Shown here: piece after piece, positions 26,485-61,232 of the stretch
Layout of the letters: every line of letters begins with the position of its first letter
Numbering within the stretch: the stretch's first letter is position 1
Assembly: GCA_951804945.1 (NCBI GenBank)
Contig: OX638157.1
Coordinates: 40,362,001 to 40,426,000, forward strand
Direction: 5' to 3'
DNA: 64,000 nucleotides
Origin: Podarcis cretensis
Taxonomy: Eukaryota
Notes under the pieces: generated by a model
Databases searched by the model: none
The model's input: only the letters and a program-made list of their open reading frames with translations
What the model was told of the DNA's origin: nothing
Program-made: the position numbers and the translations under genes

Positions 26485-26679
26485 TAGACTAAATAGACAT
26501 GAGTCTCTCAGACTGCAAAATGGAAATATCCCTAGGCATAGCTAGGGATATCTAGACTTACCGTATATAGATAGGAGAGCCAAATCTAACCATGGATTGA
26601 ACATTGACAGCAGTTACAGACTTTGGGCTCTCAAATTTCCTGCAGTGCCCTGTGCAATGCTAAAATCCACGTTGCACAG

Positions 26680-28923: not shown

Positions 28924-30284
28924 GTTTTTCCAGTGTTTAGCGACGAGTATTCTTGCTGCTGTTGTTGCATACATAAAAAATGTTCGGTCCTTCTTTAACA
29001 CCCTCTGGCCAACAATGCCCAAAAGGAAGGCCTCTGGTTTCTTAGGGAAGGTATACTTAAATACCTTTTTCAACTCATTATATATCATTTCCCAGAAGGC
29101 CTTAACCCTAGGGCAAGTCCACCAGAGGTGAAAGAACGTTCCCTCAGTTTCTTTACATTTCCAACATTTATTGTCAGACAGATGATATATTTTTGCAAGC
29201 TTGACTGGGGTCATGTACCACCTATATATCATTTTCATAATATTTTCTTTCAAAGCATTGCATGCTGTAAATTTCATACCGGTGGTCCATAACCTTTCCC
29301 AGTCAGCAAACATGATATTACACCCAATGTCCTGAGCCCATTTTATCATAGCTGATTTGACCGTTTCATCTTGTGTATTCCATTTTAACAGCAGGTTATA
29401 CATTCTTGAGAGTACCTTAGTCTTAGGTTCTAACAGTTCTGTTTCCAACTTCGATTTTTCCACCTGGAATCCTATCTTTTTATCCAGTTTAAAAACCTCT
29501 TTAATCTGAGCATAATGTAGCCAATCTCGCACTTTATCTTTTAGTTTCTCCAAACTCTGCAACCTCCAATTGTCTCCATCTTTTTCTAGTATTTCCCAAT
29601 ATTTCAGCCATTTGACCTCCATATTGGGTCTTTTCAGAGCCTTAGCTTCCATAGATGACAACCACCTTGGGGTCTTATTTTCTAATAAGTCTTTATATTT
29701 TGTCCAGACATTAAACACTGCTTTCCTGACAATATGGTTCTTGAAAGCCTTGTGAATCTTAACCTTAAAGGTAAAGGTAAGGTAAAGGTACCCCTGCCCG
29801 TACGGGCTAGTCTTGACAGACTCTGGGGTTGTGCGCCCATCTCACTTAAGAGGCCAGGGGCCAGCGCTGTCCGGAGACACTTCCGGGTCACGTGGCCAGC
29901 GTGACATCGCTGCTCTGGAGAGCCAGAGCCGCACACGGAAACGCCGTTTACCTTCCCGCTGGTAAGCGGTCCCTATTTATCTACTTGCACCCGGAGGTGC
30001 TTTCGAACTGCTAGGTTGGCAGGCGCTGGGACCGAGCAGCGGGAGCGCACCCCGCCGCAGGGATTCGAACCGCCGACCTTTCGATCGGCAAGTCCGAGGC
30101 GCTGAGGCTTTAACCCACAGCGCCACCTGCGTCCCCGAATCTTAACCTTGTCATACCACAAATATGCATGCCATCCAAAAGCGTTGTTAAACCCTTCCAA
30201 ATCTAAAACATCAGTGTTTTCAAGAAGCAGCCAATCTTTCAACCAGCAGAAAGCTGCTGATTCATAATACAGCCTTAAGTCTAG
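28924..30284 (-). mobile_element. L1-clade LINE ORF2 C-terminal fragment, split by a SINE
   Basis: LDLRLYYESAAFCWLKDW...; CCHC knuckle CWKCKETEGTFFHLWWTC. Removing the SINE and one TSD restores ...YDKVKIHKAFKNHIVRKAVFNVWTK..., about 326 stop-free codons. Confidence 0.9.
29767..30136 (-). mobile_element. Sauria-type SINE, full length, 13-bp TSD
   Basis: tRNA-like head GGGGACGCAGGTGGCGCTGTGGGTTAAAG with B box GGTTCGAATCC; (ACCTTT)n tail; TSD GAATCTTAACCTT at 29754-29766 and 30137-30149. Confidence 0.92.
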
Positions 30285-33237: not shown

Positions 33238-35549
33238 TGTATTTATATTTCTTATTATTTATCAAATTTATATAATGGATTTTTAAGAAGAAACTCAACG
33301 AAGAATAGGAAAATGGCCTGAAAAGAAAAAGCAATGGGCTTTAAATGGGTGGAGAGGAATGCGACAGAAGGTACAAAGATGGGAATCACAAAAGCAGACA
33401 AACGGGATGAGACTGTATGGAATGTAAGACATATAAAGTGGAGAAAGAGATATAAAAAAGTATCACTTGTTAGGAAGTGTTACAACTAAACCAGTTTATT
33501 CATAAAGCCTTTTTTTTCTTCTTTTCAACAAAATGGGCTTAAGCAGTTAAGCTTGATATGATTTCCCATATAGCTTCCTGAAGACTTGCCCTGCAGAGTG
33601 AAGCGATTACATTGCCCAAAACTAACACTGCTTACCAAAAAGGATTCAAATTGGGGGGGGGGGAGTTCACTGAAACCTTTAGATGATTTGAAGGTTAATC
33701 TTTATTAAGTGGTGTTCCTCATTTACTACTGCAATAATGTGTCCACAGCTGTAAGTCACCACAAAGCCAGGCCCTTTACTAAGCCCACTGTAATTTCTTC
33801 TAGAAACAAAACCTACCTCAAACCAGCGTTACTTTATCATGGGCACAATACATAGACTGAAGTGACAGAACTAGGATAACCAGAGCTAGAGGTGCATTCA
33901 CCAATGACCTAGAAGAGATTACGTAATGACAGTTATGCACACTTCCATTGAATACGAAGTGATTGCCAAATACTACAGTAGTTGGATCTCCTCACTTAGC
34001 ACCAACATTAGAAAGTCTTGTTAACACAATGAAAAGAATGACTTACATAAGTTTCACGGAAAAGGTACAACAGCATCCTAAAGAATGTATGGGTTTACTT
34101 TAAAAGTTGGGATAACAAAAAAAAAAACCCACAACATTTTGAGAGGTGAAACACCGTTCCATAGCAGCCTTGCACACTCCATTACTGAAATACATTTTGT
34201 CACTTTTTAAAAATTAAAGTTGTAGTTTTGCAGAAACAGTGTTAATACAAGTAGACGGATTTATGCTGCAGCTATTAGACTACTGCACATTTCAAGCATT
34301 CCCCCTTATGTGATTTACACTTGCTTGGAAGACATAATATGGCCACGCCAGGTGACACAGCCATTGCATCTTCTGCCAACCCTTCCCCCTTCTCATCTAG
34401 GTGTTTGGGGCATACCAGCAGAGCGAAAGGCTGCTGAACAAACATAGGCTCTCTCCATGTTCTAGAGCCCTGCATTTGTCAAGGTTTACCTTGATAGATA
34501 TGCCCTCAAGACATGGATGGTGAGGGGTGTAAGTGAGCAGGAGACATAAAAGCCGGAGTTAAGTCCCACTCCACTTTCCCCCTCAGACCTGTGGAGTAAA
34601 CCAGAAACGAGCTCATGTTCATATGCATATCTGCATGGATGTAAGGCCCATCTAGTTCAATGAGGACTTATTTCCAAGTAAATGTGCACAGACTTGCAGC
34701 TTCAGTTAGAAATATACCTGATATAGCATTTTAGACCTTATATTAACTAACAGTTATTATTTATAGAAAATGGTTAAGACAGAATTAGAAAACTGCACAT
34801 AATATTTAAAGATACACAAAAATGCTTTTCCTCATTTTGAAAAGGCTAGTGTAAAACATTTTCAAGCAAAAACAATGCACAGAACACACAAAGAATACTC
34901 TCCAGATCAAATTTTAGAGGCGAAGCACAATTACTGGGTTAATTATTTAACAGACTTCTAGCTTACTAACTTACTTCACAATAAGTCACTATTCAGACCA
35001 ACTTCTAGAAAGGTCCAGCAATTTTCTTTTGTTAAAACTTCACCTCTCTACTCTTCTACCAAGTCTTAGTATCACATTTGCAGAGGAGCTTGCCCCTGTG
35101 CTTCTCTCACATACTATTGATGGTACTTACTCTAACAGTGACCAAGGTTAGAGAGAAGCCTTCAGTAATGAGCTAAAGCATATAGAATATGCCATGCTCA
35201 TGCGTATAACTTCTGAAAATTGAACTATTGCTATTATTCCCCTATATATCATCTGGTTTGATGATAGATATGTATTTATATGGTACAGTATTTTGGAATT
35301 TATTAGTATTATTGAATAGCATTACATTGTATTTTCAGTGTAACCCTCCATGGCACCATATGATGAAGGGTGAGTAACAAAAGAGTTGTTCTAACAAAAG
35401 CTGAAAGCTTGGGCCATCTATACCAGCCCACATCATGATCAGAGCAGCCTGATTGGGAATTACAGCCTTAGACAAGTCCTCCAACATTTACAGTTTCTCT
35501 GGGCATGAGTTCCCTCCTCCCCCCACACCTTCCCTATACTCATTTGTCT

Positions 35550-36577
35550 TAGTGATATTCATAGAGCTTCAGTATGCTGATGACAATGTAGTGTGTACAC
35601 ACTCAGAGGATGACCTCCAAACCATCCTAAATATCTTCGCAGAAGATTTTGGAAAGCTTGGCCTATCGCTCAATATCCAAAAAACCAAAGTGCTGCACCA
35701 ACAAGCAAAAAACAACCCCTCTGCAGCACCACAAATCCAACCATGGTATAACGTTGGAAAATGTCGACCAATTTTCCTACCTGGGCAGTTATCTTTCTAC
35801 AAGGACCGACACTGATGCCAAAATCCAGCATCACCTGAGCTCCACGAGCACAGCTTTCTCCCAATTGAAGCTCAGAGTGTTTGAGGACCGGGACATCCGC
35901 AGTGAAACCAAAATGCTTGTTTACAAAGCTATTGCACTACCAACTTTACTGTATGCTTGTGAAACATGGAACACTTATAAATGCCATCTCCAACTCCTCA
36001 AAAGATTCCATCAATGTTGTCCCTGAAAATGTTTACACATCACTTGGGAAGACAGGTAACTAAAGTCAGTGTACTGGAAGAAGCAAAGATCACCAATGTA
36101 GAAGCAATGATTCTTCAACATCAACTTTGTTGGACTGGTCATGTTGTTCAGATGCCAGATTATCGTCTTCTAAAGCAACTACTCTATTCCCAACTTGAAA
36201 ATGGAAAGCGAAATACTGGGGGAATAACAAAAGAAGTTTAAAGATGTTCTCAAGGCAAATCTTTAAAAATGTAGTATAAGCACTGATAAATGGGAAACTG
36301 GCCTGTGAGTGCTCCAGTTGGAGAACAGCCTTTACCAAAGGTTTTGTGGACTTTAGAAGCACAAACTCAGAGCAGAAAGGAGAAACGAGCTAAGAGGAAG
36401 GCACATTTGGCAAACCCTCACCGTGATCAACTCCCAAGCAGAATCCTATGTCCTCTCTGTGGAAGGATATATGGATCCAGAAATGGCCTCCATAGTCACT
36501 TTAGAACTCACTGTTAAGACCGTTTTCATGGAAGACAATCTTACTCATCTATGAGTGATCACCAAAGAAAGAAGAAA
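35550..36577 (+). mobile_element. RTE-clade LINE 3' fragment (frameshifted)
   Basis: ELQYADD RT motif; YLGS; LYACETW; C-terminal CPLCGRIYGSRNGLHSHFRTH zinc finger; short 3'UTR ending in (GAA)n. Confidence 0.9.
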
Positions 36578-36678: not shown

Positions 36679-37237
36679 GCGGGCTATGTTTAAGGGTCCT
36701 GCCCCCAATCAGCTTGTAGGACACTGAACTAATTTAAGGTTCTCATTTAGGATTAGCCAATCTTAACATGTCTCAGAGAATGATAGCACTCGCCTGAAGC
36801 TACACTTTTCTTAATGGGATAAGAATACTTTCTTCTAACCACAATTCTTATAAGAGCAAAGAGCCTTGAGTCACATAGTTTATCACTTCAAAGAAATGGA
36901 TGGGTCATTAAGATAAGAAAAAGGGCAAAATGTCTTGGCAAAAGACCAGTCTTTTACATTTGACATGACCTTTGGGAAAGGGATTTTGGAATGAAAGAAT
37001 TTTTAAAAATTACTTTGAAGTACATGTGTTCTCAAAAAAAGTGTTATCTATAGAACTCTCTCAGTTCACCTTAAAGACTTGAGTACAAGTCTAATCCTTT
37101 ATAGCAGTCTTTTATTGAGGACTTTTAAAAATAAAAAGGGTTTCTGATATAATATTTTTTATAACTGACATTTTCAAGGGAAAGATTAGTTAAAGAGGTT
37201 GAATCCAACTACAGGCTGAACTGCCTTATTTGCAGTA

Positions 37238-37436
37238 CAGTGGTACCTCGGGTTACATACACTTCAGGTTACAGACTCCGCTAACCCAGAAATAGTGCTT
37301 CAGGATAAGAACAGAAATCGTGCTGCGGCGGCAGCAGGAGGCCCCTTTAGCTAAAGTGGTGCTTCAGGTTAAGAACAGTTTCAGGTTAAGAGCTGACCTC
37401 CGGAATGAATTAAGTACTTAACCCAAGGTACCACTG
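37238..37436. mobile_element. Tc1/mariner MITE, same family
   Basis: Same TIRs; TA TSD. Confidence 0.9.
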
Positions 37437-37609
37437 TACAACGTTGTATAATATGAATGCTTCAAGTAGTTGTGATGCTAATTCTGGAGAGCCTTCCATC
37501 AGAAACTCTTACCCTAGGTGCAATGTGTTGCATTATTGCAACCTACAATGCAACTGAAGCTATGGTTAATACACTGCTGGCATAACCAGGGAACTAGCCA
37601 GCCTACTTA

Positions 37610-38678: not shown

Positions 38679-40166
38679 TAAGTCATGCTCTGGCAAGCAG
38701 CTTATACAACTTGGCAGAGAGGTGCGAATAAAAAATTTCAATCCCTGCTCAAAAGCTTCCCATCTACATTTAGGCAATGGTGAAGTTGTGCAAGAGGCTA
38801 AACGCAGAACAATGTCTGCCATTGAATAGCAGTAAGTTGCACTTCAGTGGGTGCTGGCTCTTTTCTAGCAAGCACACCTGTACATAATTGAGACATGAAG
38901 ATAACAGGCTTGCAGATCTTCCATTATACTAGTGTAGCCAAACACAGCCACATCTGAGATATGTCAAGCTTGCTATTCTTTCCTGTCCAAATCTGTGTGG
39001 CTCCCTATCCCTCCCATGCTCACTTTGAACTTGATGAGACAGCAAACATACCTTTACTTAGGAACTTGTCATTATTAAGGTTTGCATCACATATTATTTT
39101 CAGAAGACCCGAAGTTCACTTTATAAGTGAAAGTCATCTAATTTCACAACCCAAATGCCACTTAAAAAAAAAAACCTGGTGTAATTAACCTGCTTTTGGA
39201 GAATAAGTATGGCATGAAATCAAAATACTTTAAATAGGCACTAGCTATAAAATGGCAGTGAGAGTACTCATAGGACTATCTATTAAGATTCATGAAAATA
39301 AAAATGTAAATTTTGGAATCAGTCTTGTAACATATTTTGTTTATGGTGATATCTGGTCATTCCTGCCCTATGATTACTTACAATGTGACACACGCAACAC
39401 CAGAGCTATATCCAGGAACTACCCAAATACACAAACACAAAATTAAATTATGCCAAGTGCAAAGAGAAGTTGCTACTAGGCAAAACAGGTGTAGGAGGAA
39501 GGACTGCAACAAGTCTTGGGGGGGGGGGCACCATGAATTTGTGCCTAACTCATCTGTAGGCACCAAGGGTCAGGAGCACTGAGTATCTCCCAGTGTAACA
39601 CTTTCCTGAATTACAACACTTCACTTTTCCTCAAAAAAAGTGAGACACTCTACTGGAATAGAGGCTCAACTATACCTTTCTCCTGTTTACTTTATCCCCA
39701 CAAAACTAAATCATATTTGAATAGTAACTTTTTAGTGCCCAGCTCAGCATAACATAGTGGCTAAAAGTCCAAGCCTGGAGTCTTAACAACCTTGTCCACT
39801 AAGAAGGAAAACATATTGAATCAGCAGAGCTTAGTCCCAGGTACATGAAGTTAGGACTGAAATCTAAGAGAAAGCCCCTTTTGACGCAGTAAGACTTACT
39901 TCTTACTACACATTTGGGATCTTTTTTCTTGCTTTGCCGTTTTACAGTGCTATGGCTAAAGTAGGGTGTCAAAGCCATAGGATTCCTGTTCAACACTACA
40001 TGTGTTCAACCCATTTTTACTGTTCCCAGCAAGTATGCAAAGTCTGCTTGCTCAAACTAAAGCAGAGCTGACATTTCTCAGAAAACTTTTTCCAAAAGAA
40101 AGAGGGAGGTTTTTCCCCCTCACCTCCCCTAGAAAAAGAACACTTCCCAGACCTTTTCTCCAAATA

Positions 40167-40390
40167 CAGTGGTACCTCTGGTTACGAACACTTCTGGTTA
40201 TGAACGCTTCAGGTTACAAGCTCCAGTAACCCAGAAGTAGCTGCTCCTGGTTGTGAACTTTGCCCCAGGATGCAAACGGAAATCACACGCCAGAGGCACA
40301 GGCATAGCGGGAGGCCCCATTAGTGAAAGCGCGCCTCAGGATACAAACGGACCTCTGAACGAATTAAGTTCATAACCAGAGGTACCACTG
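40167..40390. mobile_element. Tc1/mariner MITE, same family
   Basis: CAGTGGTACCTCTGGTTA TIRs; TA TSD. Confidence 0.88.
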
Positions 40391-40925: not shown

Positions 40926-42789
40926 TATTCATGAGTTATCTACACACACACATCCTGCATAAATTTCTAATAAAGTTGTGGGTGTATTTAATGAAACTCA
41001 GTTCTAAAGGAAACTGTTCTTCCTATCTTTCTACTCAGGTACCAGGCAGATGGAAAATTTGCAGAATATCCTGTTATTTAGGTCACACACTGAATTTCTT
41101 GAAGACAGCTTTCTATTTCCTATAAAAACTGCATTATTATTTCAGTGCAAAACATGGGAGCTATTTCTTCTGCAGCTTCCACAATGTAGAACATTTCAGC
41201 ATTTATCTACAGAAGTCAGATTTTAAAAGAAAGAGATTTTATAGTTATTTCACGACACATAGGAGAACGATGAGTGGGCAGGAAACTTCAGAGCAGTACT
41301 TCACTTCTGTAGTATGCCTGATCACACACGCTAGCAATACTTTGTACAGATGCTGCAATGCTTCAGAGACTTAAATAGATTTCTGTATTATAAAACAGTT
41401 GGTTGTCTGTAGCTTCTTGATCAGTTTAATGTGGCACAACTGCTTTGTTTTTTCTTCTGTTCCAGGGAAACACGTAAAAGTTTTGTTTTGCTTTTTAAGC
41501 TACAGGCAGCTGCAAAAAGTTACAAGAGGCCTAGTGCACATATGTTTTTGCACTATTTAGTCAGAATAATTGCTTTCTATTTATTATACATAGCAGGTCT
41601 AGACCTCAGTTTTCCTAGGCAGAGCGTTTTCGTTCCACCCTAGTTATACATTACCAATATTTAAGTCAAATAAAAGTCTGCAGTCTTACCCAACCAAGTT
41701 GTATGGACATTGTGAATGCATTGCCTACATTTAACTTCTAAAGGGATATCAGTTCTATTTGCACCAACCAACAACCCTCAGCAGGGCCACAAATGATTTG
41801 CAAAAGAACTTAAATTCTTGCAGGATCAAGAATTCGGTCTCCAGATACTTACACACATGTGGAACACTATACACTGTGCCGTTGAGCTTTCCATTCCACT
41901 TTTTAAAGCCAGATTACATTTAAGCAGTGTTGGGGTACAGCCTTCTCAACTCAACCATTCTTACCTATGGTTGAGACAGCAATATAACTTATCCTCATCT
42001 AATGATTATGTAAATGTACATTGAACAGGCACCACCATTCAGAATATCGCATAATTACTATCTGTTGCCATTACAATTGTGATATTCAAATATAATCTCA
42101 CCGTTAAACAAATCCTTCTGTTTTGGTGTAGCATTTGTCATTCTCCAAGGAAATTCTTATTACTAGGAAAAGTTGAGTGCTACCAAGATAAGTAACACTG
42201 GTGCACAATGTTTCCAGTTCTACCCAAATTGGTAGAAATATCTACAAAGAGTTATATTGCTATGGTTACTGAAAATGGGCTTAAAATGTTCACATGGGAG
42301 AAAAGAGGCATACCTCTGCAAAATCAAAGCCTTACATCAGAGCCCTAAAATTTGCAGCACCAGCAATTGTGTGTTAACAATGGTATATTCCAACTGTGAA
42401 TTAGCCTAAAATCCCAAAATACATTTAAGCATTGCAAACAGATATAACAGCACAACTATTTAGAACCTAAGTGCTTTCAAATGACTACTATGAAGGTGTA
42501 AATAGCAGGAAAGTTCCTTGATAGAAGCTATACCTCGGGAAAGCAAGGAAACAGAACAACTGTGAGTGGAAAAAGTATTGCAGCCTCACGGTTACTAAGT
42601 AAGGCCTAAGTAAGGATCCCTTCCGGGAGAATAGCTTACCAGATGCACCACCCTGTGACAAATAGGTAGGCGGGCAGCCTTAACTGTAAGGATGAAGTAA
42701 TATGAATGTGGGTAGAATGTATTGCTTTCCTTATGTTTCACCACATACCATCCTTCTCCTTTAAAGAGTTAGAAAGATGATTGCCTTAC

Positions 42790-43026
42790 CAGATTAAACA
42801 CAGTTTCCACAATATCCCTGTTGGATACTTCTCCGACTTCCACCAGTCCTGTCAGAACAGCAAATTTCATCCTGATACCACGAATAGGGATTCCTGGATT
42901 CAAAGGCTGCAGCTTGCTCTCCATTTCGGCCGTGTTTCCTTCTTTTCCTCCTCCGGTACCACCTCCCCCTCCTCCATCATCACCTGTTGGCCGAGGAGAA
43001 GCAACCTGTTTGTCTTCACTCGCCAT
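42790..43026 (-). CDS. LRBA: LRBA first coding exon (CDS part), MASEDKQVASPRPTGDDGGG...GIRMKFAVLTGLVEVGEVSNRDIVETVFNL
   Basis: Translation matches the LRBA N-terminus (MASED...IRGIRMKFAVLTGLVEVGEVSNRDIVETVFNL). ATG context GCTATGG; donor CTG|GTAAGG at 42789; 79 codons, phase 0. The 5'UTR part of the exon extends to an acceptor at 43169 (TTTTCAG) or 43176 (TCTTTAG). Confidence 0.97.
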
Positions 43027-43379
43027 AGCTTAGTTCACTTCCAGGTTGCCAGCAGAAGCCAGCACCTCAGAAATAAAAAGAGTTCAATCCGTAGCCTCAG
43101 GTCCAGTTTCTGAGCACTGAGATAATCTTGTTTTCCTTCCCTCGGCGCAAGGACAGCGGCCTCTTTAATCTGAAAACTAAAGAAAAAAATACAATTAAAG
43201 TAAAATATTAGTAGCAGGTGCAGCTTGTTGAAAACATTTGAAAAAGCCTGTCATCTAACTAATCAAGAAACACTACCCCATTCTCTCTTTGCACTCACCC
43301 CCCCTCAACCCAGAAAATGAGGGCAGGTGCAACTGCATCAGGCAGGTGAGCCCCTTTCTTTGTCAGGCACTAAACTTGC

Positions 43380-44240
43380 CTGCAAGGAAGAGAGCGCGGG
43401 ACTCCCGAAGGCGTTTACTTCTGTATTATTATTATTATTATTATTATAGACGCGCCTCTCCCCTGCCCCGCTCTGTTTCTGCAGTGCTTCCCTCCGCCGT
43501 CCTTGTGCTCCAGCAGCTGAGGTAACTGCAAGCTCCGCTCCTCCCTTCACGCACAGTCACAGGTGCAAGGACAAAGTAGGGCCGGCAAAGAAGTTCCCAC
43601 TCACGCAGCCCTGCTGCTGCTCCTCGCCTCTGCCGCGGACGGGGCCGGCGGGGAGGGACGAGGCTCTGCCGACCCCAGGCAGCTCCACGGGCGGGAGGTG
43701 TCTCCGGTGCTTCCCCACCAACAGCCTGGCTTCTACCTGCCCGGGGTAGAGAAGAGGGATGGGCAAAGAACTTCGACCTCAGGCAAGCGGCTGGAAGTTT
43801 CCTGTGCAGCTCCTTCACTCCGCCGACGCCGCGAGGAGCTCCTCCATCGCTTCCTGCCTGCCTTAGCAGTTGCTGCGGCGGCGGCTGCTGCTGCTGCTGC
43901 TGCTGCTCTCTGCCGCCATGACAGCGCTGTGCCGAGCCCCGGGAGTGTTGCCGGGCGAGCGGCAAGTGCGCCTGCGCGGCGGCCAAGAGCGGGCGGGGCA
44001 GGGAGGCGAGAAGGCAGCGGGCTTGGTGGAGGGGGGGGGAGGAGGCGCCCGCGCAGGCTCAGGTGAGCACAGGTGTGTCCAGGTGAGGCGCAGGCGTAGC
44101 CCGAACGAAGGTTCCCGTCTGTTCTCCTCGAGGCAAGGGAAACGCTGCGCCGTTGCTGTGAAGGAGAGCTGTGTTATCTCCTTTCTTTTCTTCTTTTAGT
44201 TTCGGGCAAGCGGCACCTGAAGGGCAAGCGGCAGTTTCAG
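43380..44240. promoter_or_regulatory. LRBA: CpG-island promoter of LRBA with non-coding first exon(s)
   Basis: Dense CpG/GC block in otherwise CpG-poor DNA, directly upstream of the first coding exon. NRF1-like TGCGCCTGCGC 43967-43977; GC box GGGCGGGG 43991-43998. Candidate minus-strand donors: GCAG|GTAGAA (exon end 43737), TGC|GTGAGT (43605), GGG|GTGAGT (43299). Confidence 0.85.
43875..43907. repeat. (GCG)3(GCT)8 triplet repeat in probable LRBA 5'UTR
   Basis: Direct reading. Confidence 0.95.
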
Positions 44241-44546
44241 GAAACTGCAAACCTACCTTTTTAGATAGGTCCAGGAAACCTGAGGGGCAAGGAATTAGTA
44301 GCGTCTTTTTATTTGTTGCGTCTTCACGCACTATGGACATCTGGTGACTTGAGGTGCTAGTCCTGTCGAATTCAGGACTGCTTCCGGGGAAACGTGGTCC
44401 CGTGTAGATTGAGATGGGGAGGCGGCGGGGGGAGCGGATGCCCTTTAGCACTGGTGTGGATAATATACGAAAATGAAACCTCTGCTGAACAGGGTTCAAC
44501 GTTCAACTGGGTTTCTTAATTGTTCTTGGCTGCTTTCTAGTTTGCA

Positions 44547-45344
44547 AAGTATATACACAAAGTATCAAATGTGGTGACAGTAGTAATCATACAACAAAAC
44601 AACACCACCACAAACTGGCTTATAAGTACAATATGAACCAAATTTACTAGAACAATAGCTAGAATAGAGATAGACTTGTAACCATTCAAACAACAAACAT
44701 ACTAAGGTGCCATGTGCAAGACAAAGCCTGAAGATACTGTAAACATGGAGTGGATAAATGTACAACTCTATCTTAACAAGTTACATTTGCAGTAAACATT
44801 ATGCAGACTGGATAAATGAACCGTTCACCACAAGTGGGCAAAAGGAGTATACTTTCTTTATCCTGAGCAAACCGTTTTGTATGATTGGCTTTTCGGACTG
44901 ATGAAGCGTGTAGCGAAACCTGTAATATATCCAGAGTACAGGTCTCCTTTTGCCCACTTGCGTTATTTTCACCAGGGTGGTGGCTTTGATTTGTCTTCCC
45001 ATGATTGATCCATGCATACAGCTTTGTGTTTCCAACTCAGGACCCATTGAAGAACATCTCATCCAGCTCAATCTTTGAAAAACAGCTTTGAAAAACTTTT
45101 CCATATTCTCCAGTGTGCTACCCTTGACATTGTGGTGGCACGGGGTTGCCATTCTGTGATTGGACTTACGCTGCTTGTTGAACAGTTCATTTAACCAGTC
45201 TGTATAATGTATCTCCAGGCTTTGTCTTGCACATGGCACCTTAGTATGTTTGTTGTTTGAATGGTTACAAGTCTATCTCTATTCTATTATTCTAGTGAAT
45301 TTGGTTTTATACTTATAAGCCAGTTTGTGGTGGTGGTGTTTTGT
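44547..45344 (+). mobile_element. Non-autonomous hammerhead-carrying retroelement (retrozyme-like or Penelope pLTR-like) with inverted 5' segment
   Basis: 16-bp direct repeat TGCTTTCTAGTTTGCA at 44531-44546 and 45345-45360; long inverted repeat (44592-44830 vs 45175-45346, with a perfect 71-bp core); central hammerhead; no polyA tail; no recognisable RT or endonuclease ORF. Confidence 0.82.
44895..44947 (+). ncRNA. Type I hammerhead ribozyme, predicted cleavage after GUC at 44944
   Basis: GGA-CUGAUGA(44898-44904)-A-GC[GUGUA]GC-GAAA(44915-44918). Stem III ACCUGUA(44918-24)/UACAGGU(44937-43), 7 bp; C17=44944; stem I GGA(44895-97)/UCC(44945-47), possibly extended by GGC(44887-89)/GCC(44952-54) across a U-rich internal loop. 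Confidence 0.88.
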
Positions 45345-46452
45345 TGCTTTCTAGTTTGCATCAAAATGAAGGCTCGTATATGATCATATCAATCCTGGTT
45401 ATAGTTGTATAAAGTTGCATACCCGTCAAACAATCGTTTTGAAAACTAAAAACACAACACTTTGACTCACTGTTCCTAGTTTTTATAAGACTATACACGT
45501 TCCAATGACACTTGTATGCCAAAGAGCATGTTGCCATCAACACCTGACAGAACCATCAGTGGCCAGAAGGACCTGTTGGGGCAGCTCCTCCCCCACCTTA
45601 CCTGAGGCTACTTAAGACCTGCTTGTCCTAAAGGGAAGGCAAAACCTTTGAAGCCCAAGGTAGGGCCATCAGTTCCTACAGAACATTTTAGCTAATAATA
45701 TTTTGTACCATTTGTATGAATGCTGCATTTTAAATTGTAAAACGCCATGGATACCTTGCATTTGCATTCATTGGTTAATATAATGCAATGAAAATATACA
45801 AAAATAGTTCACGTGGTTGGGTGGTTAGCTCTAAGAGGCCTCAAACTACTTGGAACTATTCAGTAGCACAGTTCCACTATAAAATGAGTATGAGGCAAAT
45901 CGAATATCAGTTTTGTAACTCTGCTTAAAATAAGTAATAAACTGATCAGCATATATTGTTCAGAGTGTACCACTTGTTTTGGACTTGGCTGGGTCCTTTG
46001 TCCTTCCAAAATTGCAAAATATACCCGTAAGTCTTCTACATGTAGAGGTCTGTGAAAGCTGTGTTTGCTGTAATGTGTAAAGAGCACTGCAAGCTTGGTT
46101 TTTTGTTTTGTTTGGTTTTTGTATTATGAGTACAGGGGAATCCCTGCTTACATGGGGGTTCTGTTCTGAGTCACTGCCCAGAAATAAGTTCCAGCACGTT
46201 CCACTCCCATTCCACCTGTGGCCCACCCTGTTCCGCCCCTTTTTTGTGCCCAAACTGGCATGTGTGTCAATGGTTGCCTATCATGTGCAAGTGGGGAGGT
46301 GCCTGTACATAGGTCAGCCAAAGCAACACTTGTCCATCACACATTCTCCTGCTGCTAGAATCAAACTTCCAAAATGCAGGTAGCGTAATTGGTCCTAATC
46401 GCCAGCCACAATCCCTTTATTTTCCTCTCACTGGTTTCTTGGTTGTCTAGAA

Positions 46453-46588
46453 CAGGCTTCCTCAACCTCGGCCCTCCAGGCGTTTTTGGCCTACAACTCC
46501 CATGATCCCTAGCTAGCGGGACCAGTGGTCAGGGATGATGGGAATTGTAGTCTCAAAACATCTGGAGAGCCGAGGTTGAGGAAGCCTG
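46453..46588. mobile_element. hAT MITE, 136 bp, near-palindromic
   Basis: CAGGCTTCCTCAACC TIRs; TSD GTCTAGAA / GTCTAGAC. Confidence 0.92.
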
Positions 46589-46782
46589 GTCTAGACCGAA
46601 TACAGCCAGCATGGTGCTGGACTGCAACTCACATCATCCCTGACCACTAAGCATGTTGGCTGGGACTCATGGAAGTTGGGAGTCCAACAACATCTAGAGG
46701 GCATCACGTTGGCTAGTTCCCATACATGTGCACTTGAAAGAATAAAAAGTTACAGCTATCAGAATCCACAAAATCAGTATGG

Positions 46783-46991
46783 GCAGGTCAGTTGGTAGAG
46801 CATGAGACTCTTAATTTCAAGGTTGGTGTGTTCAAGCCCCATGTTGGGCAAAACAGTTCCTGCATTGCAGGGGGTTGTATTATATGTTCTGTGAACCGCC
46901 CTGAGACCTCTAGCTATAGGGCAGTATATAAATTCAATGCATAATAGTAATAATGACCCTTGTGGCCCCTTCCAACTTTACAATTCTATGA
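46783..46991 (+). mobile_element. tRNA-Lys(CTT)-derived SINE with CR1-type tail, interrupted by an L2-type tail
   Basis: TCAGTTGGTAGAGCATGAGACTCTTAAT...TTCAAGCCCCATGTTGGGC, then TTCCTGCATTGCAGGGGGTTG..ATGACCCTTGTGGCCCCTTCCAACT..TTCTATGA, matching the CR1 end at 62073-62146. Confidence 0.8.
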
Positions 46992-47607
46992 CAAAAGAAC
47001 TCATTTCATACACTGCATTCCATCATATCATTGCAGATTTCTATAGAATTGATTTTCTATCCCCCTGCCCCCTTAATTGTAATAGGGAAAATACTTAACG
47101 GAGAAAGAGAAGATAACAGATTATTATTTTTGCAATAGTTACAATGGTTTATCTGTTCAGTGTAGCTGCTTGCCATGCAAATGACCCAATATTAAGTGAA
47201 ATGAGCTGCAATAAATTGTTGTGGTTGTAAATACCAAAACACGTTTATTACTACTTTATCTGAACATATCCTTATTTGCATTATAAATTTGTTGTATCTT
47301 TCATCTGCAATAAAGTTGTCCTACTAAATTAGTAGCCTTTCTACACCATGCAATGATTGGCTCAGTCTCATCATCATTGTAACTTTTGGTATTATTTTTT
47401 CACACCTGAGGCAATCAAGAAAATGCCCCCCCCCCAAAAAAAAAAAAATCAGGGAAGAAGGGGAGAGTGAAGATCTACAACAGGAATAAGGAGGGAATAA
47501 AGTTTTACATTGGAAACAAGGGTAGGAGGAGACCAGAAGTGCTGCTGTAGAGGCAGGTAGGGGCTGCCGAGGTGGCAGCAGATCCGATCTCCAAGGAGCG
47601 CACCAGA

Positions 47608-47608
47608 G

Positions 47609-47642
<34 letters not shown>

Positions 47643-47643
47643 C
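47608..47643. repeat. (GCTGTC)n hexamer repeat
   Basis: Five perfect units plus one variant. Confidence 0.95.
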
Positions 47644-48483
47644 ACTGACACATTCATTGGAGGCCAGATTTGCTGGCCCTGTGGATCCTGCCACCTGAGG
47701 CGGTCCTGATTTTCCCCTTGAGGTCTTTTACCCACATACTACTTAGGCTCAAGTTAGTTTTCTAGACAAACAGAATCACAAACTATAGTGGCCTGGCTAA
47801 GAACCTTCACAAAAAAATATAAAGAATATGCAGTCAGTATTTAAGACTTTAACTATTATCTGCAATATTCTTTATAATATGGCAAGGAATTCTGTGACTT
47901 GCAAAGCTATATTTGTATATAATTCATTTTATTCCAATGTAATCATTCATACTCGTATTGCACATTGTGAGGAAACTATAAGCCTGTGCAAAACCACATA
48001 GTTTGCCTTTTCTTGTCACCTTGAACTTCCTGTTGTTGTTTTCCTGTGTTGAAAAGTCTGCAGATCTTTAGCACGATATGCAGGAACTTGCAAATCTCAT
48101 CTATACTGAGACTTCTTAATTGACTTATTTCTATGCAAGGTCTGCTTTTATATGTTATAATGATGATTATATTAGTAAATCAAGTTAAGCATGTTTGTCC
48201 AGGTTTTTAAATGAAAAGCAAGGAAGTCTATCAGTCTTACCAAGCAGTGACTAACTCTTCTAATATTATCCCACCAGTAATGTATTGAAAGCTAAACTAG
48301 GTGTGTGAACAAACTGATCTATTAAAAGATAAAGATAAGCTGTGTCAGAACTTGTTTTTACCACGTCATCACCATTACTATGTAAGAGAAGTCCTAATAC
48401 TCTGTTTACCATCTTAATGAAACCCCCACAGAAACCAATCTGGAGATTTGAGGTAAGGGAGAAACTGTCTGCAGACAAACGTT

Positions 48484-49650: not shown

Positions 49651-50094
49651 ATGCATTAAACAATCAGTTTTTTTAAGGTCCCTGAAAGAATCCATGTGAT
49701 ATGTTTTTCTCCTGCATTATATTTAAATCCTGGATGTATGAGGTATATGTTTACATTAATCATAGGCTCTGCATTATATGCTGAACTCTAAACCATGAGA
49801 TAGGAAACACATATATCGTGGATTCATGCACAAATTTCACATATACACAGCGTCTAAAACAACAGTGAGTGACCAGGAAAAAAAGACCAGGCAATTATAC
49901 TGAATAGCTTGATGGAGATGTTGAGTCAGTATGTGTCAGCTATGAAACAAGCAAATTCCTAAATTGCCAGAATCATGATGTTGTTATGCAAATCTCTGGT
50001 GACACCATACTGGAAAAGCTGGAAAAGGGTTTTGGCTGCCCTTGGAAAGCAAACGATTGAAGGGCTGGTGCAAATTCCCTATGAGGAAAGGTTA

Positions 50095-50463
50095 CAATCA
50101 TATTACCCCTTAACCTCCTCTTCTCCAGGCTAAACATGCCCAGCTCCCTTAGCCGTTCCTCATAAGGCATCGTTTCCAGGCCTTTGACCATTTTGGTTGC
50201 CCTCCTCTGGACACGTTCCAGTTTGTCAGTGTCCTTCTTGAACTGTGGTGCCCAGAACTGGACACAGTACTCCAGGTGAGGTCTGACCAGAACAGAATAC
50301 AGTGGCACTATTACTTCCCTTGATCTAGATGCAATACTCCTATTGACGCAGCCCAGAATTGCATTGGCTTTTTTAGCTGCCGCGTCACACTGTTGGCTCA
50401 TGTCAAGTTTGTGGTCAACCAAGACTCCTAGATCCTTTTCACATGTACTGCTCTCAAGCCAGG
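50095..50463 (-). mobile_element. CR1 LINE fragment
   Basis: [18 protein letters not shown]...[18 protein letters not shown]...EKRRLRG. Confidence 0.92.
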
Positions 50464-51708
50464 TGTTGTGTTCAGTTGTTTCCATAGAAATCCTTAGTTA
50501 AAAAAAATGCTGACCATTGGAAGCTCTTCATCTACTTTACCAAATACTGGCTTCATATTTCATTTCATTTCACTTGAAACCAGAAGAACTAGAAACCAAA
50601 CCTGGACTCCTGGACAAGAGATCTCTCTTCTTCCTGCAGAGCAAGTCACACTTTCTCCCTCCCAATTTCTGCAGTAGTGTCTTGAATGCTTGGGAAGCAT
50701 CAGAAAATAGGTTAAGGGATGCACTTTTTTGTGGTTCATCTCAAAGTTATCTTGAAGCATTCCTGAGCCACAGTTTTGACTGGGAGCTGCCGCTCATATT
50801 GATTTACATATATCTGCGTTTGTGCCTTCTTTTGACTTCTTTTACAGCCTTAAATCTATTTCTTCCCCAAGCCTTTATGTACCATTACCTATTTACCTGT
50901 CTGTATTGTCTGGTACAAACCAAATCAATGCTGTCACCTGTATCAAATGGTGTCCTCTCCATATTCAATGTTGTATTCTTCTTTTCATTGCGTCAGCACA
51001 ATCATTTCTACTTGTCAGGTGGAATGTTTTCCCCTCTTTTCCCCTATGTGCTGTTCTGGGATTTCCCCTGACCCACAAGAGCAGATTTGGGGAAGGGGCA
51101 GAAGAGGAAAAGCCGCAATGCACTAGTGGGAGCCCTTGCTCTGGCTTTCATTAGCACAGTGGGTTAACTGAAGCCTTTGATTCACAGTCTGATAGCGGTT
51201 AATTGTGATGAGGTATTAAAAACCCCAACACTTCATATTTATAATCTTGTTGCCTATCAACTGGATTTCCTAAAATATGACTGGTTTAGGGGAGATTTTA
51301 AACATTGTCTCAAAAGGTGTGACTTGCTTTTTGTAGAAAAACAATTGGGGATTTGCTTGATTTTTGCTGTAAGGTTGTGAAATCAGAGGTAGAGTAATGG
51401 GTCCAGTTATAAGGATTAAAACTCCACTTTTATGTAAAAGTTGCACTGTAATTCTATAGGATCTGAGGATAAAAGTGCCTGTGTTGCATGAGAAGCTTCA
51501 TCTCTGGCTTTTAATTGGAAATGGCCCAGTTTATTTCAGCAGCATTTTATTGCATATAAATATACAAGCACCACAATAATAGTTGGTCAAATTTTGATGC
51601 AATTTCATTCTGAACAAGCAAGTGTTTGTTTTTGTGCTCATCCTTGGTTTAATTCTTAGCTGTGCTTAATGTACATTCTTGGATGTATATGTTAAGTCAA
51701 GCATAGTA

Positions 51709-51925
51709 CAGTGGTACCTCGGGTTAAGAACTTAATTTGTTCCGGAGGTCCGTTCTTAACCTGAAACTGTTCTTAACCTGAGGTACCAACTTTAGCTAAT
51801 GGGGCCACTGTGCCGCCGCCACTCAATTTCTGTTCTCATCCTGAAGCGAAGTTCTTAACTCGAGGTACTATTTCTGGGTTAGCGGAGTCTGTAACCTGAA
51901 GCATCTGTAACCCGAGGTACCACTG
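51709..51925. mobile_element. Tc1/mariner MITE, same family, opposite orientation
   Basis: Same TIRs; TA TSD. Confidence 0.9.
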
Positions 51926-53180
51926 TATATCTAGAAACAATCAAAGATTTATGCAGCGTATTGCAAGCCATGGGTTAGTACAATTAGCCAGCTTAACTAA
52001 GACAAAGCATGATAACTAACCGTCACAGCTAAACGACAGTTGCCTGTTCACCTCTTATGATGGCAAAATATATTTGTATCAAGACACTGGGTAGAAGAAA
52101 GGGCTCTGTGCTAGTGTCCATAGCCTCTTGTAGAAACTATATTGCAGAAATCTGGAAGCTATAAATAGTTCCAAGGCTTGGTAAGTCTGGATTAGTACAT
52201 CTGCAGTCAGAATTTGTCATGAGAATAGGAAATGAGGAAGCTGCAATTCAAATAGTGTCTGTGGAAAGACGAACAGTGTATATGGAAATACATTCTCACT
52301 CTAGAGGCAGGAGTAATGTGCCACAAGCGCTGTTGTTTTGACAATTTGCCATAATTTTATTTAGGTCTGACATAAATTTTCCCCATAAAGCCTGGTGAAG
52401 AGATTCCCAGCGTGCAAGGCTGATTTAAAATGTATGTGTAGGCAGTATAGTTTCATTTATCCAGATCTTCCCTGTCCAGATCTTATTATGTGTTGGACAT
52501 ACTTTATGTTCTTTGACACGTCAATATTGAGATAGTATTGTTCTACAGCAGTTGTAATGTTTCTTCCCAGAACTCCCCTCTGTGAGATGCCTGTGATAAA
52601 TGGGACAGTAATCAGACAGTTTCCCGTGGGCCTATGGATAAACATACTTAGCTTTCTTTCTGAGTTTTGCTCTTTAAAATCAGGACTGTGTCTAACATAA
52701 TTTCTCAGACTGCTAAAGTTAACCACTGCCTTGTTCACTATTCTATGCCCTTATGCTTTTTTTGTTGTATCATTGTGTTGATTCTTAAATCAAGAGTGCG
52801 ATCCTGAAAGATAACCTTCCCACCCCCTGTATTACCTTGCTCCTTGGAAATAAAATAGTGTTTGCTGTGCCCATAAATCTATGCAATATTGAAACTGCAG
52901 ATGCAGTCTTTTGAGGTATGGGAAATCATTCTGTTATGTGATTATATACTGTACAAAGCACAATAGGACAGGAAGGGGCAAACTTTCAACATAGAGCTTT
53001 AATAGGTATATTTTTAATAGTTAGGTGGATGGGAAAACTTTGTCAGATACAGACTATAGATATTTGGAATTTCCTTTATGCAACCACTAGGCAACACAGG
53101 GTCAAAAATTCCTTCAGCTGAATCATACTCAATATTCCTATTTATAGTTGGAGAAGTAAGAAGATAAGCTTGGATCCAGA

Positions 53181-55949: not shown

Positions 55950-56985
55950 TATATTTGTAAGGAAACAGCAATTAGAATGCACTATAAACATGCAACACTA
56001 GATGGCGGCAGAGAGCAGGAAATTTTAAAACGCTGTTTTCCATAAGGATTTCTTTCTTTTGTTATAACGATCCAATTTCTGACTTATTTATAGCGTTTTC
56101 CCCCTGTGTCTAGAGCCACCCTATGTGATGCAAGCCTATGTGTGCAACAGGGAATCCTGGGTCAATCAGCATTCACCCTCATACAGAGGACCCAATATGT
56201 GTAGGGCTGCTTCTCATGGCTGCCAGATGTGCAGCTAATGGTAAGCTCTGTGGACAGCATGTGTAGCAGGGCAGAAGACAGGTTAGCCACACGACCCCCT
56301 AGCACGTGCTTCCAATATGTGGTGGAGCTTGTATGAAACCTCACCATCATTACTGTTCAAAAAAGTTTTTTAAAGCTGGAACTATAAAAATGTCTTACAA
56401 AAAGAGGACTTTATTGTAGTTCAGGTGCTTTCAGTGTGCTCTAGTCCTCTAAGCTTCACAGTTCAGTAGCTATCTAATACGGTTTACCTTTTCAGACAGC
56501 AGTGCCAGCTTTCATTGCATCATCTGCTGCTGATTTCTTAAGAGCTAAATAAATGGTTCCTTACAAACTTTGATCATTAAAGGCAGCAGTAGAGGCAGAA
56601 GAAGGTGTTAACAAACTGCCAGGATGGATTTTTGTTCCAAAGCTGATATGGTAATGCACTGCAGCAAGAATAATTTTGAACTCAGTCATATCCAGCAGTT
56701 ATGCAAGTGAACTTTCACATGAACAATGACAAGATTAAAGTCAACCTTTATAAAATTCAGCCTTTCTTGCTGAGTTGAAAAACCACTAGTGATTGGTGTC
56801 GGGGAACTTTGATAAAGACCTATGTCTGCCCATCATAAACTTAATCCTTTATGGAATTAGTGATTATGGAAATGTGTCGGTTGGAATAAAGGAAAGAGTT
56901 TACCTATTCTGTAGTGTTTTTCAGGTTTAAACCACTATGGCCCACTCTGTGCATAGGATTGCAGATTTGGAGGTGAAGCAGTTTA

Positions 56986-57227
56986 CAGTGGTACCTCGGG
57001 TTCCATACGCTTCAGGTTACAGATGCTTCAGGTTACAGACTCCGCTAACCCAGAAATAGTACCTCGGGTTAAGAACTTTGCTTCAGGATGAGAACAGAAA
57101 TCTTGCTCCAGCGATGCAGCGGCAGCAGGAGACCCCATTAGCTAAAGTGGTGCTTCAGGTTAAGAACAGTTTCAGGTTAAGAACGGAACTCCAGAACGAA
57201 TTAAGTTCTTAACCTGAGGTACCACTG
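56986..57227. mobile_element. Tc1/mariner MITE, same family
   Basis: Same TIRs; TA TSD. Confidence 0.9.
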
Positions 57228-59261
57228 TACTTTGGGTTGAGTATAATGACTTCAATGTGGTTTACAAAACTTCACTTCACAACAAACCAGTCAGCTGCTA
57301 ATGTGTTATATCACACCGTGTGACATTTTCATAGTGTCACTTTTTACAGTTGGGCTGTTTTAAAGAACAAATTCAAGCATAATAACATTAGCAAGTGCAA
57401 GTGAGTCCTTAAAAAAAGAGACGCTATTCTGCCTTTGGGGAAATCTGCACCCAGTATGTCAGTACACCATGTACAAAAATAAAATAAAGCAAAAATCTCT
57501 CTTGGTTCAGAGCTGATAAAAGTGGTGCGGTAAATAAAATGATAAATTCTCAGTTCAATAGCCAAAAGGAAAATGAATACATTGCTATGCATTGTTTACC
57601 CAATGTTTTAAAAAGCTCTTGAAGTAATGCATAAACATAAAGGACACTGAACTGGAATTTCTGAAAGATGGTCTGATCTACACCAGCTGCAATACCAACA
57701 TACATTTCATTGGCGTGCCAAGAGGCAATTACTTTAGAACTAACGAGGAGGCAGCACCCCACCCGTACCCAGTGGAGCACCCTTTCAAATACATTTTTCA
57801 AAAAAAAAATGGATAAAAGCATGAGCACGTAAGATACTGAACTGCAAGCAAATCCAAACACAGTTGTGTTAATGCTCTGCATGCAATGTCTGCTCCAGAA
57901 GCAAAAGCGGGGGGGGGGGGTCATTAGTTTGACTGCATTTGTAGTTTATTTATTTCATGTCTTTTAAAATGGATTGTTTTCCTCCAAATGTATTTTTAAA
58001 ACACGTGCCCATTTTATTGATTTATTTAGTAATATTCTTTAGACCACATTTCGTGACACTGGTCATAATGTGGTTCCCAAGATAATGAAATCACACAGCA
58101 TTTAAAACCAGGAGCACAATTAAAATCATCAAAAATTAACAGCAACAGTAATTACAGTGCAGGAAATCCTAAAACCAAGCTTAAACAAAAACCCATGAAA
58201 TCCTGTGAGAACAGATGTGTTGTTAATTAGGTGATGGAAAGCCATCAGTGATCAGTGTCTCCAACGGGAGTGAGTTCAGAAGCATATTACAGATCTGCTC
58301 AGTGGCCCAAAAAGACTGGCAAGCCCTAGAAGAGGAGCAAGGTTTCTAGACGCATGCAATGCCCAACTCTGCATCTGGTCTTCTTGGCACGAACCTCTAT
58401 TTGGCAATTAATCACCCCTGAAGAGAACAAATATATTTTCCTGATGAACACTGCCCCTTCTGGTTAAATCAACCACAGGGACCTCAACCAGTTTTTCACA
58501 TGGATATCTATTGGTGCACCACTCTTTAACTCCTGACATGCAAGGTCAAGTACAGTCTCTGTCAACTTATACCTATCTGGATTGGCTCACCTATGCTTCC
58601 ATCCACTCGCAAAAAAAATTGAAGGTAACAGGTCTCCAGTTACTTGGCAACCTTTTGTTTTTCAATCCCCTCCCTCCTTAGCCTCAGTCTCAATCATGTT
58701 CATGTTTTGTCTCAGGGACCCCTCCACACACACACTTCTCATTAAACTGGGGCTTTAGGTTTTTGTCCCCAAGGGCCCCATCACTGCCCAATCTCAATGG
58801 GAGGCTCCAGAACAATTTCAACCCCTAGTAGCTCCTCTACTCTCTTCCCTTGCCTCTTCTCTTTCTGTGTGTGCTTCTCTCCAAGTTAGTTGATGCCCTT
58901 AAGGGGACATGAAGTCATGTGGCCTCCCATGAGGTAACTTTCCCATCCTTAAACCACCTGTAGTGGGTTCTCCACCATGCAGAGTTTCCTGGGTGAAGCA
59001 CAGTCTGCAAACTTTGAAGGGTAGGTTATGTCTTGTGTCCATGCGTAGCCATTTCAAGATCCCTGCTATGCAACTGTGGCCCCAGACTCCTGGGTCGCTG
59101 TGAAACTTGGGGAACCCACTGCTTCTTTTTGCCTGGCAACATGTAACTCATAGCATTTTAACCTTTGTTTCTTTCTCTTCTATTTCCTTGATCTTGCTGT
59201 CTTTTCTGGCCGCCCAACTTCTACTTAAAAACCTCAAAAGAATGAGAGTCCGTCACATCCC

Positions 59262-59670: not shown

Positions 59671-61096
59671 CGCTACATTTCTGAGTAGTATACATGCAGA
59701 GACTCAAGCACTGAGTGCTACATGATTGCAAAGCCTTGGAGGTATATAAAATATTTGCACTGTTTAGCACTGCAAAGACAAATGCTTTTACATAAGAACA
59801 CACTCTGAACTAATCCACCAAAATCAGTCAGTTAAGCCTTTAAGATGTACACAGCACAGTATCTAGCTCTTTTTCAAGAAATGTGTGGGAAAATGAAGCA
59901 TATATTGTTTGTTAGAAGCTGAGCAAACAGAACTGGAATTCTGATGTTTCCTAGCTGTGAATCATCCATTTTTTTTAAAGTCAGAGCTTTTTTCTTTTTT
60001 TTTAATGCCTACAGTGCTGACACCCAGTCCAGGTGCATATGCTTAGAGTCAACCCAGGAATAAAAATGTCTGCTACGACTGATTGCAGCCAATCCATTTT
60101 GGAAAAAAGAATGTCTATCCTTCACTCTACTGAACTATTCTTTTGTTCTAAAGATAAGAATGACGAAAGAATATGTGAATTTGGTTTTGTCATTTGAAAA
60201 TTTAGAAGACCCCCTATCTAATAAGTATTTTTCTATATAATACTGACATATTATATAGAAATATATATATATTGCAATTACAGCAGCACAGTGCCACTGT
60301 TGGGGTCCCAAATGGTGCTGGGGGTGGGACAGGACTGGTAAGAGGCTGAGTTTTGATTGCATTCCTGAGACTAACATTTGCTTTGACCCACCAGTGTTGC
60401 AGCATGTTTTCTATAGATGTTTCACTTGAACAAGTTTACATTGGAATGTAAGCTTAAAACTCACATGTATCATGGGTTATGCAGTAGGTCTTTCTCGTCC
60501 TAAAAACAGACCATTAATTTCAGGAAACAACTTTAAGTACAGCTCACCAACATTTAAAACTTGAACCACACATTATAAAACAAAAAGCATTATTGTCATG
60601 AATTACGGGGATCAAAGGCAGCAAGGAATCTGTTTCTTTGAAATCAACCAAATTCCATTCACATGAGCCATAATGTCTAACACTACTGAAAGTGCTACTA
60701 CTTCTGAATTTTTACTAGCCAGGTTTTCTCCCCAGTCCTACTGGAAATTCTGGTTCCTCAAGTGATAAAATCTTATCAGATCAGCAACTCAGGCCATTTC
60801 TTCCTTCTCTTCAAGTGACATAATTTGAAGCGCTTGGACCAAATGCTGGGTGTCCATAAGAGATCCAAAATGACACCTTCCCTCCAAGTTACTGAACTTG
60901 AAATTTTAATGCAACTGTATGCCAGATATGTAGAATGTGAGCAATGCAAATGGTTTTGGATAGGTATACTTATATAAATTTTTAAGGCGCTTAGAAACAA
61001 TGTTGAAAACCCTGAAAATATTTGCTTTCATGTTCTTATACAAGTAAATTTGTATTGCTTGAAGAACAGGGCTGGAGAACCTTTGACTCTCTAGAT

Positions 61097-61232
61097 CAGG
61101 CTTCCTCAACCTCGGCCCTCCAGATGTTTTGAGACTACAATTCCCATCATCCCTGACCACTGGTCCCGCTAGCTAGGGATCATGGGAGTTGTAGGCCAAA
61201 AACATCTGGAGGGCCAAGGTTGAGGAAGCCTG
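61097..61232. mobile_element. hAT MITE, 136 bp, same family, nested in an older MITE
   Basis: Same TIRs; perfect TSD CTCTAGAT (61089-96, 61233-40). Confidence 0.93.

Follow-up and report, generated by a model that had tools for sequence, protein, structure and literature searches.

The insert of about 800 bases that lies in the 64,000-nt stretch of Podarcis cretensis DNA analysed here (hereafter the window) consists of two head-to-head pieces of a multi-copy repeat, with their 3' ends outward (Table 1). We think it on balance probable that it is a non-coding Penelope-like (PLE) insertion unit, made by two-ended priming on two overlapping templates that were joined head to head. Two fixed 3' termini, a one-sided 46-nt tail, an inverted arm, a target-site duplication (TSD), a type I hammerhead and no poly(A) were found, and membership of the PLEs is likely on these structural grounds; no ORF for RT or GIY-YIG is linked to the repeat family, and the lack of such a partner is a point against the two-template reading. 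An earlier, sequence-only reading had proposed twin priming on an RNA whose 5' end was the ribozyme cut. It is partly supported: the insert is a real feature that was correctly described, and internal two-ended priming, which is already known for PLEs, stands. Classical twin priming (the process of which Ostertag and Kazazian reportedly gave the original description in L1) on a cleaved RNA is possible, and the paralogs lend it no support. Related copies do not stop at the cut; the insert is therefore likely to be an ordinary insertion scar that carries a weak hint of ribozyme cutting.

Table 1. Position, strand and basis of the features of the insert and of one dispersed repeat, in coordinates of the window
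Feature	Position	Strand	Basis
Left TSD; its last A also fits the 8-mer	44531..44546	+	exact repeat; junction spanned by contigs
Inverted-arm tail, 46 nt, without counterpart in the forward arm; outer end is family terminus A	44546..44591	-	sequence; contig loose ends
Inverted-arm body, homologous to 45173-45346; 44592 is family terminus B	44592..44835	-	sequence; contig loose ends
17-nt piece equivalent to 44944-44960, ending on C17	44831..44847	-	perfect reverse complement
Junction base T, where the family continuation of both arms has A	44848	.	window against loose-end consensus before 44849
Forward arm, running through the intact hammerhead and ending at terminus B, no poly(A)	44849..45346	+	sequence; contigs
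Type I hammerhead motif	44887..44954	+	core bases, stems; paralog alleles
Right TSD; its first TG also fits the element end	45345..45360	+	exact repeat
250-nt dispersed repeat copies	23097-23342, 26239-26487, 27922-28196, 37218-37440, 40163-40330, 51700-51927, 56982-57234		

The insert is flanked by an exact direct repeat of 16 nt, TGCTTTCTAGTTTGCA, for which the probability of a chance occurrence is about 1e-6. The length of the TSD is 13-16 bp, depending on whether A44546 and TG45345-46 are assigned to the element. These bases are the junction microhomologies of 1-2 nt on which the sequence-only reading had drawn: their positions are right, but they are no more frequent than chance allows (0.26 and 0.07). 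The two arms (the inverted one spans 44546-44847) are overlapping duplicates rather than adjacent segments, the overlap extends over the whole inverted arm, and 160 of the 168 aligned bases are identical. The arms differ by 8 substitutions, two 4-nt indels and two large deletions. A 60-nt block of the inverted-arm body (44738-44797) is missing from the forward arm, and the inverted arm is without the 217 nt equivalent to 44961-45177, its 17-nt piece being joined to the body through the microhomology ACTTG. The 4.8% divergence between the arms might have served to distinguish one template from two. It was rejected as a test, since private changes are found in each arm and several species splits are more recent than the insert. 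No coding ORF was found in a six-frame translation of the insert, the longest frame having no Pfam match. If the insert were part of a transcript, it would fold as a long RNA hairpin with a predicted energy of -365 kcal/mol.

The head-to-head geometry also raises the question of a fold-back event, in which the first cDNA primed itself and copied itself into the inverted arm. Self-priming has been proposed for palindromic junctions of PLEs (PMC3846280), and the motif CCTGT is found a few bases past the head-to-head junction on both sides. The tail of 46 nt and the 60-nt block of the inverted arm, though, have no counterpart in the forward arm, so that both would have had to be lost later, and we regard such an origin as very improbable.

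The breakpoint itself may carry a short duplication. The 8-mer TATACTTT is present in the forward sense at 44848-44855 and as its reverse complement at 44546-44553, which confirms the coordinates given by the sequence-only reading. By chance such a match would be expected with a probability of 1e-4 at the exact positions and of 2e-3 with 2 nt of slack. In the family sequence only the six bases ATACTT are common to the tail and to the start of the forward arm, which reads ATACTTTCTTTATCC in the insert, and the chance value for this 6-mer is 8e-4 to 1e-2. The odd base T44848 may be a filler, a later mutation or, if the template was a dimer, derived from the tail.

Paralogs of the repeat were taken from short contigs of four of the 23 listed runs, which represent four organisms, mapped on 44300-45175. 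The loose ends considered here are the 24 listed out of 206 (182 more rows exist, as well as 1213 further pieces), and a locus shared between runs is counted once per run. Within the 64-kb window itself neither blastn nor nhmmer found a second copy of the repeat, and the family 5' motif is likewise absent; exact-pattern scans of metagenome contigs and viral contigs gave no match. Summed contig depth over the repeat is 55-630 times that of the flank, a figure that is not a copy number and that nonetheless makes its multi-copy nature plain. The junction between the left flank and the element is crossed by one contig in each of the four runs; the insertion therefore predates the split of the four organisms, whose flanks show 0, 4, 6 and 9 differences in about 273-282 nt.

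The loose ends of the paralogs define two termini. Terminus A corresponds to loose ends before 44547-44550 (32 contigs in 7 of the 24 listed rows, all four runs) and terminus B to loose ends before 44585-44592 (22 contigs, 4 rows, three of the four runs). Beyond both, the consensus is of low agreement, which indicates unique flanks. They are 40-46 nt apart and match the two outer ends of the insert, terminus A being a short zone rather than a point, as the similarity extends for as many as about 10 more bases in some contigs. Thus, the internal priming without poly(A) that had been suggested from the sequence is borne out by family-wide termini, and the heterogeneous 3' ends expected along with it are replaced by clusters at two sites. 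A minus-strand stem-loop is predicted at 44558-44612, where a GUGGUG run pairs with CACCAC in the tail and terminus B falls inside. At the other end of the family, 18 contigs (4 rows, one per run) have loose ends before 44849. Their consensus upstream of this position agrees for 16-18 nt, differs from the tail and then diverges, which places the family 5' end, as it seems from these contigs, about 18 nt upstream of 44849 and about 114 nt before the cut. The start of the forward arm of the insert thus lies some 17 nt downstream of where the family seems to begin. This different family sequence before 44849 speaks against the idea that the tail ran into the forward arm on one RNA.

According to these results, we propose the following scenario. 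After a staggered cut of the target, both 3' ends would prime reverse transcription at the two fixed start sites of the family. At site B (45346) the bottom strand would start the copying of an uncleaved RNA, and this first cDNA would cross the hammerhead and end some 17 nt before the 5' end of the family is reached. The top strand would be primed at site A, the tail end, on a second RNA or on a second copy of the repeat. This second cDNA would stop near 45173-45178, re-anneal through ACTTG at 44956-44960, 16 nt from the cut, and then be extended by about 12 nt, being halted either by the stem III hairpin, at its base, or by the end of a cleaved RNA. End joining with 1-2 filler bases would complete the insert, and the 8-mer would then consist of the family 6-mer ATACTT, one target base and one filler base. 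Ribozyme cleavage is allowed in such a scenario and not required by it. As regards twin priming, retro-insertion with a long TSD and priming by both DNA ends are retained, and the classical form with a single RNA, which would need a dimeric template, lacks support. The scenario has its own cost: the match of the 8-mer is then largely a matter of chance (1e-4 to 1e-2), and the end on C17 is an event of 2.5-9%.

That end is the feature on which the case for ribozyme cutting was built. The hammerhead core is complete, with all conserved bases, at 44898-44944 (core segments 44898-44904 and 44915-44918). Its stem I has 3 bp and possibly a distal 3 bp, stem II has 2 bp and stem III has 7 bp. The predicted cut lies between 44944 and 44945, with C17 at 44944. 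An Rfam search gave no hammerhead match at the gathering score or at E up to 5, returning two chance-level matches only. In RNA folding, the forced active fold was 3.5 kcal/mol above the minimum, and the folding z-scores of the region were unremarkable (-0.16 to -0.35). When the monomer was folded in three sequence contexts, the pairing probability was 0.998-0.999 for stem III and at most 0.022 for stems I and II. C17 is the unpaired base that immediately precedes the stem III hairpin, and its position at the base of this hairpin would make it a natural stall point for reverse transcription.

Three variable or constant features of the motif in the repeat family are worth describing. The family alleles 44933G and 44937A, found in paralog contigs, give a palindromic TCCGGA in loop III (region 44931-44936), which suggests dimer folding. 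In the 2-bp stem II (44906-44914) no variant was seen among the paralog variant rows listed, 26 further rows existing, and such a short stem II looks like the state of the family. Finally, between 44888 and 44889 three paralog contigs from two of the four runs branch into a GTAAG donor-like sequence, with no acceptor seen in them. Positions 44888..44889 may thus be a putative splice junction, and the insert copy perhaps a spliced form; splicing at this point would create the GG/C strand of the distal stem I helix.

The inverted arm keeps C17, so that its end lies one base beyond the predicted cut. The claim that the inverted block, which stops at 44847, ends within 1 nt of the equivalent of the cleavage site is correct, and the 17-nt piece is a perfect reverse complement. 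This cut-site end rests on 17 nt, because the inverted arm jumps 217 nt through ACTTG. Given the jump, the arm would end no more than one base from the cut with a probability of 2.5% if ends are uniform and of 6-9% if extension was short. Moreover, a cleaved RNA lacks C17, and the retained C17 therefore needs an untemplated G. The use of a cleaved RNA as template, and hence an activity of the ribozyme in vivo that left a genomic footprint in this one copy, is accordingly a tentative idea that we would sooner doubt than accept. To call the junction independent evidence of an active ribozyme, as had been done, was too strong for one copy and a 17-nt piece that keeps C17, with a stall at the hairpin as an alternative and a chance of 2.5-9%.

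The paralogs were informative in this respect. None of the 24 loose-end rows listed out of 206 falls at 44940-44950, where the cut lies, and depth shows no step there, the ratio of upstream to downstream being 1.02-1.45. The distal part has 3.6-4.7 times the depth of the part behind the cut, in line with 5' truncation. Among the joins listed, at least three other loci have head-to-head junctions with overlapping arms, their ribozyme-side arms having inner ends at 44987 (seen in two runs and also in a variant row), at 45097 and at 45143. Another apparent 5' end, at 44914, comes from a single long contig. The pile-up of 5' boundaries at GUC^ that a cleaved template led one to expect is thus not what the family displays, either in the 24 listed rows or in the mapped 5' ends (0 of 4). 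Zero of three junction loci at the cut has a probability of 0.125 if half of the templates were cleaved, a value that excludes only a very high cleaved fraction. No starts shared by many molecules were found in the contig data, for which this measure is uninformative.

The same junction loci bear on whether the insert could be a DNA transposon of foldback or MITE type that has long terminal inverted repeats, a possibility that long inverted arms between direct repeats naturally bring to mind. The inner junction varies among the paralogs (3 loci), the junction of the insert is private to it, and the termini are asymmetric; in addition, the depth gradient fits 5' truncation and a TSD of 13-16 bp is long. 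We consider this origin extremely improbable.

How the 217-nt gap arose deserves separate consideration. In paralogs, 44827 is followed by the 45172 region and not by the 17-nt piece. The join table missed the insert's own 60-nt deletion, and the normal continuity between 45172 and 44827 was seen in one contig in each of three runs. Contig depth is lowest at 44810-44869, a stretch that paralogs leave at 44827 and 44849. Two paralogous inverted arms end at 45178 and about 45167, within 12 nt of the jump point, and the main body of the insert's own inverted arm stops in this zone as well. The chance of such a shared stop zone is about 0.004, a post hoc value exposed to detection bias, and the equivalent of 45167-45178 is a possible candidate for a stop site of reverse transcription. 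One could imagine that the unit was a two-template PLE insertion whose inverted arm, originally longer, was trimmed afterwards by deletions that relieved the palindrome; the C17 end and the 217-nt gap would then be uninformative about the RNA. Indeed, both large deletions look private, no listed paralog join has the 217-nt form, and paralog contigs cover the 60-nt block well. The insert is also old enough to be common to the four organisms, and microhomology deletions are common in PLE copies (PMC3846280). Trimming would nevertheless leave the end within 1 nt of the cut to chance (2.5%), and the two paralogous arms that stop at most 12 nt from the jump point favour a stop during synthesis. We hold it to be improbable and retain the stop and re-annealing of the second cDNA as part of the two-template reading.

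The model of the sequence-only reading can be refined into a form that accounts for more of the junction, namely twin priming on one dimeric, retrozyme-like RNA cleaved by its hammerhead. Its source would be a locus in which the shared ATACTT links two units of the repeat, and cleavage at the upstream hammerhead would provide the 5' end of the RNA. The first cDNA would start from site B of unit 2, traverse the second, uncut hammerhead and reach the point where the two units meet. The other cDNA would begin at site A of unit 1, run off the cleaved end and add one G. This would explain the 8-mer (tail T, ATACTT and the next T), T44848, the end at the cut site and both natural termini. Of L1 inversions, 17% have short duplications at the breakpoint (10.1101/2024.08.27.596794), tandem hammerhead retrozymes derived from PLE repeats were reported in 4 of 5 reptiles sampled (10.64898/2026.07.22.740005), and hammerheads of retrozymes cleave better as dimers (PMC7229834); the palindromic loop III of the repeat family points the same way. 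However, among the joins listed in the four runs none connects the tail to 44849, contigs having limited power for rare joins, and the required join is also absent from the consensus of the 18 contigs with loose ends before 44849 and of the 32 with loose ends before 44547-44550. The retained C17 again demands an untemplated G, the indels and 8 substitutions between the arms exclude identical monomers from a rolling circle unless all of them arose later, and the other head-to-head junctions of the family avoid the cut. We keep this alternative, which is doubtful, in consideration because a tandem dimer, since lost, explains the 8-mer exactly. Likelihood bookkeeping with assumed priors gave the dimer 0.33-0.99 before correction for C17, for two extra priming choices and for a conditional null; the weights that we attach to the two-template and dimer readings are a matter of judgement and not of measurement. 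That a hammerhead-cleaved dimeric retrozyme RNA was integrated by Penelope machinery, in a case of genuine twin priming from both PLE start sites, appears rather unlikely to us. If true, it would be the first sign that a hammerhead-cut RNA of PLE type served as integration template in vivo, and it would offer a direct mechanism for the inverted repeat and one-sided tail of PLE insertions.

The surroundings of the insert contain other features. A GC-rich island at 43400-44200, 350 nt upstream of the insert, has a (GCT)12 repeat and splice-donor-like sites and is probably a promoter or first exon. Two copies of a palindromic repeat family of 150 nt, at 46439-46678 and 61083-61295, are 96% identical as an inverted pair, and we take them to be MITE-like. 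A dispersed repeat of 250 nt, whose ends are inverted and which contains a tandem unit of 16 nt, has at least seven copies in the window (Table 1). The ORFs at 28921-29841, 35453-36026 and 49973-50497 resemble decayed LINE fragments, presumably of L1, RTE and CR1 type, and a Pfam scan of the window ORFs at E 0.01 matched none of 8.

The sole reconstituted PLE system needed no cleavage by the hammerhead (PMC11167929). A family with copies that end at the cut would show that cleaved RNA is used. The repeat family described here seems to be the opposite, its copies passing through the ribozyme as far as the contigs show. The insert is a clear example of the use of both PLE start sites in one event, and its locus offers a genome-wide test of how the inverted arm and the one-sided tail arise.

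The insert can be compared with several known systems. L1 twin priming gives the same succession of TSD, inverted part, forward part and TSD, and both nicks prime there (10.1101/2024.08.27.596794). The arms of L1 inversions are adjacent segments of one RNA with one poly(A) end, whereas those of the insert overlap and both of its ends are fixed sites. Non-LTR retrozymes resemble the insert in being non-coding and of low GC, with a type I hammerhead, a likely derivation from PLEs and a long TSD (PMC7229834; 10.64898/2026.07.22.740005). They are tandem units, whereas the insert has one intact hammerhead; no tandem units were found in 42000-48000 or among the contig joins listed, a comparison of limited power. 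In R2, with an HDV-like ribozyme, and Perere-3, with a twister, a genomic 5' boundary at the ribozyme cut is taken as the footprint of cleavage in vivo (PMC8501958). In these elements the boundary recurs across copies beside the TSD, whereas the insert has one inner junction that is unrepeated in paralogs. Among papers searched by title and the start of the abstract, most subscription papers being outside the search, we found none on PLE inversions by twin priming or on PLE copies bounded by the hammerhead cut.

The closest likeness is with the PLEs themselves. The usual PLE layout is an inverted 5'-truncated copy, a one-sided tail of 30-40 bp and a TSD (PMC3846280, PMC8557442), and hammerheads are described in PLE repeats, including those of reptiles (PMC4209133). 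For Poseidon of the anole, the PLE protein nicks and extends both strands, two internal start sites define the tail, and hammerhead cleavage was not needed, no RNA reads ending at the cut (PMC11167929). The insert differs from endonuclease-positive (EN+) PLE units in having no ORF or linked autonomous partner. Its tail is of 46 nt against 30-40 in published PLEs, and its stem II of 2 bp against 6-8 in described PLE hammerheads. About 460-500 nt separate its cut from its termini, whereas the start site of anole Poseidon is about 85-90 nt behind the cut. In common with EN+ PLE units, in which a pseudo-LTR carries the hammerhead, it has a type I hammerhead in the repeat, head-to-head arms, a one-sided tail, two internal termini, a TSD and no poly(A). 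A candidate intron donor lies just before its stem I, as in Penelope of D. virilis, where an intron ends at helix I (PMC4209133). Finally, the start-site region of the insert is UG-rich in the ribozyme sense and not AC-rich, and the predicted stem-loop around terminus B resembles the stem-loop start site of the anole element.
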